DNA from: Candidatus Gottesmanbacteria bacterium
GTDB taxonomy: Bacteria; Patescibacteriota; Microgenomatia; UBA10105; UBA927
Direction: 5' to 3'
Length of the DNA stretch: 64,000 bases
NCBI GenBank assembly: GCA_016214885.1
Contig: JACRMP010000025.1
Location: 44,025 to 108,024, forward strand
Of this stretch, positions 30,439 through 32,373 are shown one piece after another. The notes below the pieces were generated by a model. It was given only the letters and a program-made list of their open reading frames with translations, was not told where the DNA came from and searched no databases. Position numbers and translations under genes: made by a program. Positions within the stretch are counted from its first letter, which is position 1; each line of letters starts with the position of its first letter.

Positions 30439-30831
30439 TTACGTGCGGGGGACAATCATGCGGGAGAGGCGGGTAATGCGGATATGTTCCATATCATGCG
30501 CTGCCATCGCATCTTTGGGAATACGTGCGATGGTCCGTGCATACGCATCGATGCGTACCGGAAATTTAGTCTGAAAAGTATAGGTTATCGTAAGATCTTT
30601 ATCTGGCCCGTCGGTTACTACTATTTCTACTGCAGACGCATCACCGGTGTAATTTTTGATCCGTGAATCCGGAAAACCCCGGACCCACCCGGTATTTGTA
30701 CGGGGACGCGTTCTGAAGCCGCCGCTTTCTTCCACTACTACCACATCCTGCAACATGAGACTCATTTCTTTGGCGGCACTCATGGGGCGATAGTAGGGGG
30801 TTTGGGTTGCCGGTGTCAATAACATGTGCAT
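30439..30831 (-). CDS. Hypothetical protein (start uncertain; possibly MSAAKEM at 30783)
   Basis: An ORF with native GC content; no recognisable motif. Confidence 0.3.
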   Translation of the reverse strand: MHMLLTPATQTPYYRPMSAAKEMSLMLQDVVVVEESGGFRTRPRTNTGWVRGFPDSRIKNYTGDASAVEIVVTDGPDKDLTITYTFQTKFPVRIDAYARTIARIPKDAMAAHDMEHIRITRLSRMIVPRT

Positions 30832-30884
30832 GGGTGAATCAGCTTGACTTCAGTACAAAAAGGAGTAATGTTACAGCAGTATTT

Positions 30885-32309
30885 ATGAAGCTAATCGATC
30901 AATTATCAAGCATACAGTCTCCGCGAGAATGGGAAGAATTATGCGATGCTTGTTTTTTGGCTGAATTTGGCTTAAATTACCAAACAGTAAAATCCAAAAA
31001 AGATAATGGGATGGATGGATACATCATTTCTGAAAAAAGATTGATTGCAAAACATTGTTTTGAGGAGAAGCCATCCATTCACGATAAAGATAAAGAAATT
31101 AAAAAAAAGATAATCCAAGACTTGGATAAAGCGATTAAGGTTAAATTGCGAAGAGAGGTTAGTCGTTGGACGTTCGTCACACCATATGAGCTTACTGAGG
31201 GGCAACTTAAGTTTCTTGAAGATGAGGCTAGAAAACGAGGTTTTATTGGGTCAAGTCTTTGTGCTAAGTCGATAGAAGTTATATTGCTGCACCACAAAGA
31301 AATAATATCTAAATTTCCTAATTTGGAAGTCGTTGATATAAAAAAAGATATTGGCGAAGTTCTTAATCGATTACCAAAGATAACTAAGATTGGAGAGCTT
31401 ACCCCGAAGGAGCAGGAAGCAGATGCACTAAGCCTTCAAGATAAACAAAATACATCAATAACCCACGAGAAAACGTCGGAAAAAGAAAGGGAAAGTTCAG
31501 AGGATTTAAAGAAAGCTCAGAAATTGTCTAGTGGAGAGCGTGACAAGGGCAATAAAGTCGCCCTTAGAGCCCTTCTATATTCATCAACGGACAAATTGGC
31601 TCAAATGCAATGCGCAATGGGGTTAATACAATGGTACGATGTACTGTCGGAGCGGCCTGAAGAGATGATAGGAATTTGCGATAGAGGTGTTCAATTATCT
31701 AAAGAGGCGAATAGACTTGATCTAGAAGCGATTTTTTTGGTTTCTCGTGCAGATTTTCTCTCAATGCAGTTTTGTGAGTTAGACATGAATGTGACTGCTC
31801 AGATAAAAATGGGGAATGCAGTGGGTATGCCGTTAATTAATGAGGCTGATAGGAAAAAGGCATTACAACAATTGGACGCACTTGATAAAGCATTCAAATT
31901 AGACTTCTCTAATGCGTTAGAGAAAGCTAGACAGTCTGGACAGGCTCATATTATTGCAACGGTTTTGATGAAAATTGGGTCTGCAGCAGGGAATAGATCA
32001 ATTCACTTAGCGGCCTACGGAATTCAAGATAGGGCGGATTTAGAAAAAAGAATTTGTCTTGATACACTTGCTACAGCAAAAAATATTTATGCGAATATTG
32101 GTGATGAAATAGCGGTTGCGTATGTATTGCATACAATAGCTAATAATCTTCGTTTTTTTGGTGAGAATGAGGAGGCAAAAATATTAATAGATCAAGTCAT
32201 TGAGACTTCTCAAAAACTTGGAGATAGTTATCTAAATGAAGGAGCAAAAATTCTGAAAGAGCGAATCATTACAGGGCGGATACCAGATTATGTTCATGGT
32301 GAACGTTAA
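30885..32309 (+). CDS. Low-GC single-gene island: an Mrr-like PD-(D/E)xK nuclease N-domain fused through a disordered linker to a ~300-aa helical-repeat domain
   Basis: N-terminus WEELCDACFLAEFGLNYQTVKSKKDNGMDGYIISEKRLIAKHCFEEK resembles the Mrr catalytic domain (FExL...GY...DGGIDG...hhh.K). A charged linker follows, then amphipathic helical repeats. GC is ~35% against ~50-58% in the flanks. Confidence 0.55.
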   Translation: MKLIDQLSSIQSPREWEELCDACFLAEFGLNYQTVKSKKDNGMDGYIISEKRLIAKHCFEEKPSIHDKDKEIKKKIIQDLDKAIKVKLRREVSRWTFVTPYELTEGQLKFLEDEARKRGFIGSSLCAKSIEVILLHHKEIISKFPNLEVVDIKKDIGEVLNRLPKITKIGELTPKEQEADALSLQDKQNTSITHEKTSEKERESSEDLKKAQKLSSGERDKGNKVALRALLYSSTDKLAQMQCAMGLIQWYDVLSERPEEMIGICDRGVQLSKEANRLDLEAIFLVSRADFLSMQFCELDMNVTAQIKMGNAVGMPLINEADRKKALQQLDALDKAFKLDFSNALEKARQSGQAHIIATVLMKIGSAAGNRSIHLAAYGIQDRADLEKRICLDTLATAKNIYANIGDEIAVAYVLHTIANNLRFFGENEEAKILIDQVIETSQKLGDSYLNEGAKILKERIITGRIPDYVHGER

Positions 32310-32373
32310 GCTATCTGGATGGACTAATTAACCTTTTCTTGTTTTGGTAATATAAATTGTATATACTTCCCCC

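Follow-up and report, generated by a model that had tools for sequence, protein, structure and literature searches.

What does a single low-GC gene do between two ordinary genes of a Gottesmanbacteria genome, and how did it come to be there? The first-pass annotation of the window, that is, the whole 64-kb stretch of DNA analyzed here, described this locus as a recent horizontal insertion between a native hypothetical gene and dcd. It read the encoded protein as an Mrr/PD-(D/E)xK-like domain joined by a charged, disordered linker to a helical-repeat domain. The locus has the following features.

30825..32337, no strand: foreign low-GC segment of about 1.51 kb, with borders set by alignment to the empty sites of the two closest relatives (L009 and L011)
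30885..32309, + strand: single gene encoding 474 amino acids (putative Mrr-like nuclease, linker, TPR-like domain and conserved tail), from the ORF list and translation
30885..31319, + strand: N-terminal restriction-endonuclease-fold domain, residues 1-145
31338..31493, + strand: disordered charged linker, residues 152-203, pLDDT < 50
31500..32273, + strand: C-terminal all-helical TPR-like domain, residues 206-463
32274..32306, + strand: conserved C-terminal tail GRIPDYVHGER, residues 464-474, unstructured in the model (pLDDT 27)
Upstream of the gene: 130-residue hypothetical protein (p130), conserved in the closest relatives
Downstream of the gene: dcd (Pfam DCD, E 6e-47)

The gene is the only long open reading frame in the segment. 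Possible starts lie at 30807, 30834 and 30885, with the end at 32309 on the + strand; the ATG at 30885 is backed by homologue alignment, in which all homologues begin M-x-L-x-(E/D)-Q-I. The sequence AAGGAG at 30860-30865 was rejected as a ribosome-binding site, because at 19 nt from the ATG it is too far away, and no convincing promoter or terminator was found around the gene. The low pLDDT across residues 152-203 agrees with the disordered linker proposed at first pass; 40% of its residues are D, E, K or R, and it is weakly conserved and of varying length across the family. The C-terminal domain forms a stacked helix-turn-helix superhelix, as in the TPR superfamily, which bears out the proposed helical repeat, and we presume it to be a sensor or oligomerization module. 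In the tail and just before it, the five closest proteins all share T463, G464, P467, D468, Y469, V470, G472, E473 and R474. Of 101 complete C domains, 48 carry the strict pattern G..(I/V/L/P)P(D/N)Y..GE, and looser forms occur in many more.

The N-terminal domain has the core alpha-beta-beta-beta-alpha-beta fold of the PD-(D/E)xK superfamily, and its top structural matches are the Mrr-like, FokI and Avs4 nucleases, which supports the domain as read at first pass from the letters. Its tie to Pfam Mrr_cat (PF04471) is marginal, its score of 21.3 bits barely passing the cut-off of 21 (E 3e-4, residues 12-111), and Mrr_cat is found at E<0.01 in only 3 of 60 relatives. An hhalign comparison of the N-domain profile with a genuine Mrr_cat protein (L103) was not significant, and searches of PDB sequences with the full protein and with the N-domain profile returned nothing meaningful.

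An exhaustive HMM search at E<=1e-3 yielded about 520 family representatives, all of them unnamed metagenomic proteins; a word-indexed homologue search, which gave just 5, 9 and 22 proteins, badly understated the family. No family member matches a PADLOC model over its full length. For the window protein, the best match in PADLOC-DB 2.0 is PDC-M58A (E 0.025, 12.5 bits), which is not significant; PHROGs gave no match, and NCBIfam only noise. The earlier statement that this arrangement is not a named system therefore stands for the full-length protein, the PADLOC search proposed as a check having found no significant system model.

Parts of the protein do recur elsewhere. The N domain also heads nSTAND/NACHT NTPases and TPR-GreA/B-C-PIN proteins, where it occupies the N-terminal effector slot, and in relatives it also matches a Lamassu LmuA model. 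In TPR-GreA/B-C-PIN proteins this slot is variable, and holds REase, HNH, TIR and other domains (Kaur et al. 2021, PMC8195603). The C domain, in turn, is found fused to HNH, to DUF4062, to single transmembrane helices and to an unknown beta domain. HNH, DUF4062 and transmembrane modules make up the usual effector repertoire of abortive infection. DUF4062 is reported to be an NADase in a 2026 preprint. Both domains are swappable modules. Two further candidates did not hold up: a split-gene variant was rejected because the ORF following a stand-alone N-domain ORF (L113) encodes something other than the C domain of the family, and a supposed extra effector variant (P0157) is a 5'-truncated copy adjoining a transposase.

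Relatives of the gene occupy defense or mobile-island neighborhoods in the contexts read, which amount to about a dozen contigs and have no statistical background for comparison. One set of neighbors comprises GmrSD_N-HNH, Mrr_cat, PemK, Cas_NE0113, PDDEXK_13 and Zeta-like genes. Other neighbors are ThsB_TIR and a transposase, GmrSD_N and BrnT/CopG, or an integrase and a Dam methyltransferase; relatives also lie in an AlpA island and near ParB, a serine recombinase and DUF4238. Toxin-antitoxin genes are among the neighbors, and a DUF4011-helicase-MTES_1575-DUF3320 gene stands beside relatives twice. No constant partner gene was found in these contexts.

From this domain modularity, together with the gene neighborhoods, we infer a role in defense. 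Our best explanation, to which we give a probability of about 0.6, is that this is a conflict gene obtained by horizontal transfer which acts alone, through a single protein, and is most likely an anti-phage abortive-infection gene. Several points count against this explanation. The window protein matches no PADLOC model significantly, the sequence tie of the N domain to Mrr_cat is marginal and its strand beta-3 lacks an evident (D/E)xK, the neighborhoods come from few contigs with no background set, and TPR domains also serve many non-immune roles. The surroundings in the host are housekeeping nucleotide metabolism, not a defense island, and no relatives were found in a scan of viral contigs or in tblastn searches of phage and plasmid collections.

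One alternative is that the gene is an orphaned part of a multi-gene system, inert or otherwise regulated on its own; as an accessory effector it could belong, for example, with the DUF4011-SF1 helicase-MTES_1575-DUF3320 protein, or else with a Lamassu-like SMC system. Two independent relatives do lie 19-28 bp downstream of the DUF4011-helicase-MTES-DUF3320 gene, and the N domain is homologous to the PADLOC model of LmuA, a protein that normally acts with LmuB and LmuC. That helicase is, however, missing from most contexts, and an SMC-like gene stands next to the family in none of them. The neighbors in the window are the conserved 130-residue gene and dcd, the LmuA match is confined to the effector part (within profile positions 18-218 of 336), and three assemblies carry the ORF undamaged. 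We consider an orphaned component improbable.

It is also unlikely that the gene is selfish or of toxin type with targets other than phages, i.e., an addiction module or a nuclease of inter-bacterial or inter-element competition, kept by its mobility. The 1.5-kb insert has no small immunity or antitoxin ORF, and Mrr_cat and TPR are the sole domain matches of the protein, with no secretion or delivery domain. Moreover, the swapping of effectors on a constant repeat domain typifies sensors, not toxin-antitoxin pairs.

A further alternative is a catalytically dead nuclease fold, serving DNA binding or interaction in a protein that is a TPR scaffold or regulator and not a killer. Across 58 diverse sequences D40, G42, D44 and K75 are invariant and C58, D79 and K82 near-invariant, within the family motif GDxGNDGY ... 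A-x-(Y/H)-C-(P/F)-x-K ... K-x3-D-x2-K ... W-x-F-V-T-P. On strand beta-3 no canonical (D/E)xK can be made out, its positions being taken by A55 and Y/H57. The lysine of the CPxK column, K62 in the window protein, is K or R in 48 of 58 sequences, and K75, D79 and K82 lie in the helix after the beta-3 region. The placement of K62 is weak, with an hhalign probability of 32% against an E. coli Mrr sequence that carries the motif GDGGIDG. K62, K75, D79 and K82 may be better catalytic candidates than those named at first pass. Of the latter, DNGMDGY held (D40 and D44, at beta-2, are kept in 58/58), and SEK (E50 in 29/58, K51 in 30/58) and AKH (K56 in 3/58) did not. Conservation of D40, D44 and K75, and nearly of D79, K82 and C58, among proteins 20-38% identical and in unrelated architectures counts against a dead fold, as does the presence of active effectors (HNH, DUF4062) in the same slot of sister architectures. 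We therefore regard a dead fold as quite unlikely.

The reading of a conflict gene acquired from elsewhere also concerns the segment itself, whose composition sets it apart. The GC content of 30850-32335 is 37.3%, compared with 48.6 ± 1.9% for all equal-length windows elsewhere in the 64 kb (z = -5.8), of which the lowest has 42.4%; all other 1-kb bins of the window have at least 43.4%. Third-codon-position GC is 30.5% in the 474-residue gene and 52-59% in five neighboring genes. Tetranucleotide usage, a check proposed earlier and carried out here within the 64-kb window, makes the segment an outlier and the most atypical part of the window, with an L1 distance of 0.48 from the remainder (others 0.25 ± 0.026, maximum elsewhere 0.36). 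In windows of 300 nt, GC is 35-43% from about 30800 to about 32400 and 47-53% on either side. The abrupt drop over exactly one ORF (30885-32309) that the first-pass annotation reported is therefore real, and its figures need amending: the flanks do not reach 58%, and midway through the ORF the GC content climbs to 43%. The island it drew at 30840-32340 was right in essence, the empty-site alignment moving the borders to about 30825 and 32337. Its proviso that the genome might be uniformly low in GC was checked within the 64-kb window, which is not uniformly low; GC in related loci ranges over 40-53%.

None of 79 related Patescibacteria loci has the gene, so that the proposed comparison of synteny finds no conservation at this site, and in the two closest relatives the same flanking genes enclose an empty site of about 108 bp. 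The segment stands in place of some 45 nt of the intergenic spacer that these relatives have. Because of this absence and these empty sites, we conclude that a single gene of foreign origin arrived recently, without a mobility gene, as the earlier proposal of horizontal insertion had it. The segment shows two features of a horizontal island, namely its atypical composition and the lack of the gene in close relatives whose flanks are conserved; the usual mobility features were not found, namely an integrase or transposase in the segment (by the ORF list), att or target-site repeats or other direct or inverted repeats of note flanking it, or a tRNA target nearby. The gene is almost identical in strains that differ in their flanks, with 1 difference in the 1425-nt ORF as against 12 over the 1504 nt flanking it (Fisher p 0.0035), which also speaks for its acquisition. 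A second low-GC ORF was seen at the equivalent site of a related genome (L044); considered as a family member, it was rejected as unrelated to the 474-residue family. An assembly artefact, i.e., a chimeric join of another organism's low-GC fragment into the Gottesmanbacteria contig, is barely credible: the source is metagenome-assembled and the shift in composition is abrupt, at borders free of repeats and mobility genes, but the same gene and both junctions recur at 99.6-99.7% identity in two other assemblies from different runs (SRR22216445, SRR22216447), and the insert sits precisely within the spacer with both flanking genes intact.

If the gene is a stand-alone conflict gene, we infer that it might work as follows, nuclease activity, trigger, oligomerization and the role of the tail included. 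The N-terminal Mrr/FokI/Avs4-like putative nuclease would be the effector, and the C-terminal TPR-like domain both sensor and assembly module. At rest the protein would be a harmless monomer, since DNA cutting would need a partner nuclease domain, as in FokI, and in Avs4 and LmuA upon oligomerization. Once the TPR domain bound a protein or peptide of the invader, this would either induce oligomerization or release an autoinhibitory contact, possibly made by the conserved tail GRIPDYVHGER. The nuclease domains would thereby be brought together and would cleave DNA indiscriminately.

A broader proposal is one on which we would not offer even odds, namely that the relatives form a new family of compact (about 460 residues), NTPase-independent pattern-recognition receptors. 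These would possess a TPR sensor of about 260 residues, a (G)xIPDYxxGE tail acting as latch or oligomerization peptide, and effectors of five or more kinds (Mrr-like nuclease, HNH, DUF4062 NADase-like, transmembrane and the unknown beta domain), and would reach into ultra-small CPR genomes. Defense systems are scarce in such genomes.

On our best reading, that of a stand-alone, NTPase-less sensor-nuclease defense gene, the gene is a good candidate for an immune sensor that is new and consists of one protein, from a family as yet unnamed and uncharacterized. If this is true, the family would be among the smallest known sensor-effector immune proteins, a short TPR module could link recognition to activation of a nuclease with no STAND ATPase involved, and the minimal requirements of such switches would become testable. 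The use of several effectors with one sensor, and of a single effector across different sensors (STAND, TPR-GreA/B-C-PIN, Lamassu LmuA), provides a natural experiment in module compatibility. The recent arrival of the gene in Gottesmanbacteria bears on how episymbiotic bacteria with reduced genomes acquire defenses. Lastly, about 520 unannotated 'hypothetical proteins' escape current defense-finding profiles.

How, then, does the window protein compare with known systems? Its likeness to the RRNPP receptors (Rap/NprR/PlcR/AimR) is the generic TPR fold only, its N domain having an REase fold and not an HTH or phosphatase-type bundle. With Mrr (Type IV) and the FokI cleavage domain it has the nuclease fold in common, and its acidic motif GDxGxDG aligns with GDGGIDG of Mrr. 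Mrr, however, has an N-terminal winged-helix DNA-recognition domain, whereas the nuclease domain of the window protein starts at residue 1 and a search for domains gave none that binds DNA; the Q/E-x-K that Mrr has on strand beta-3 is replaced, and the nuclease is fused to a TPR protein-binding module. The TPR-GreA/B-C-PIN proteins (PMC8195603), which are also mostly stand-alone genes, include two with the same N domain in the variable slot (P0103 and P0110, with Pfam PF20698 and TPR matches). That domain is all they share with the window protein, which lacks GreA/B-C, PIN and the long TPR array.

Lamassu LmuA combines an effector and a linker with an assembly domain at its C terminus, and tetramerization activates it; the layout resembles that of our family. 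In 23 of 60 relatives, PADLOC model PDLC03852 has a match confined to the N domain (E 1.6e-10 at best), which covers profile positions 18-124 or extends as far as 218 of 336 and not beyond, while the C domain of the family is TPR-like. The window protein itself has no LmuA match in PADLOC at E<=10, and neither LmuB (SMC-like) nor LmuC adjoins any member examined. Upx and Dsr1/Dsr2 are validated single-protein sensors without an NTPase, and Upx and Dsr1 serve as precedents. Their sensor folds are unrelated, the window protein is much smaller and has no PADLOC match to them, and in Upx the order of domains is reversed, with the nuclease C-terminal. The Avs proteins (Avs4, PDB 8dgf, and most Avs2) also have Mrr-like nuclease effectors, and their layout of N-terminal effector and C-terminal repeat sensor is that of the window protein, Mrr-like at one end and TPR-like at the other. 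In place of the Avs STAND NTPase, however, the window protein has a disordered linker of 52 residues, with no Walker A pattern and no Pfam or NCBIfam NTPase. At 474 residues it is far shorter than the Avs4 chain (1540) or its own fused relatives (about 1,000-1,500; P0143 has 995 and P0139 1376), and its sensor is a compact TPR domain of about 260 residues.

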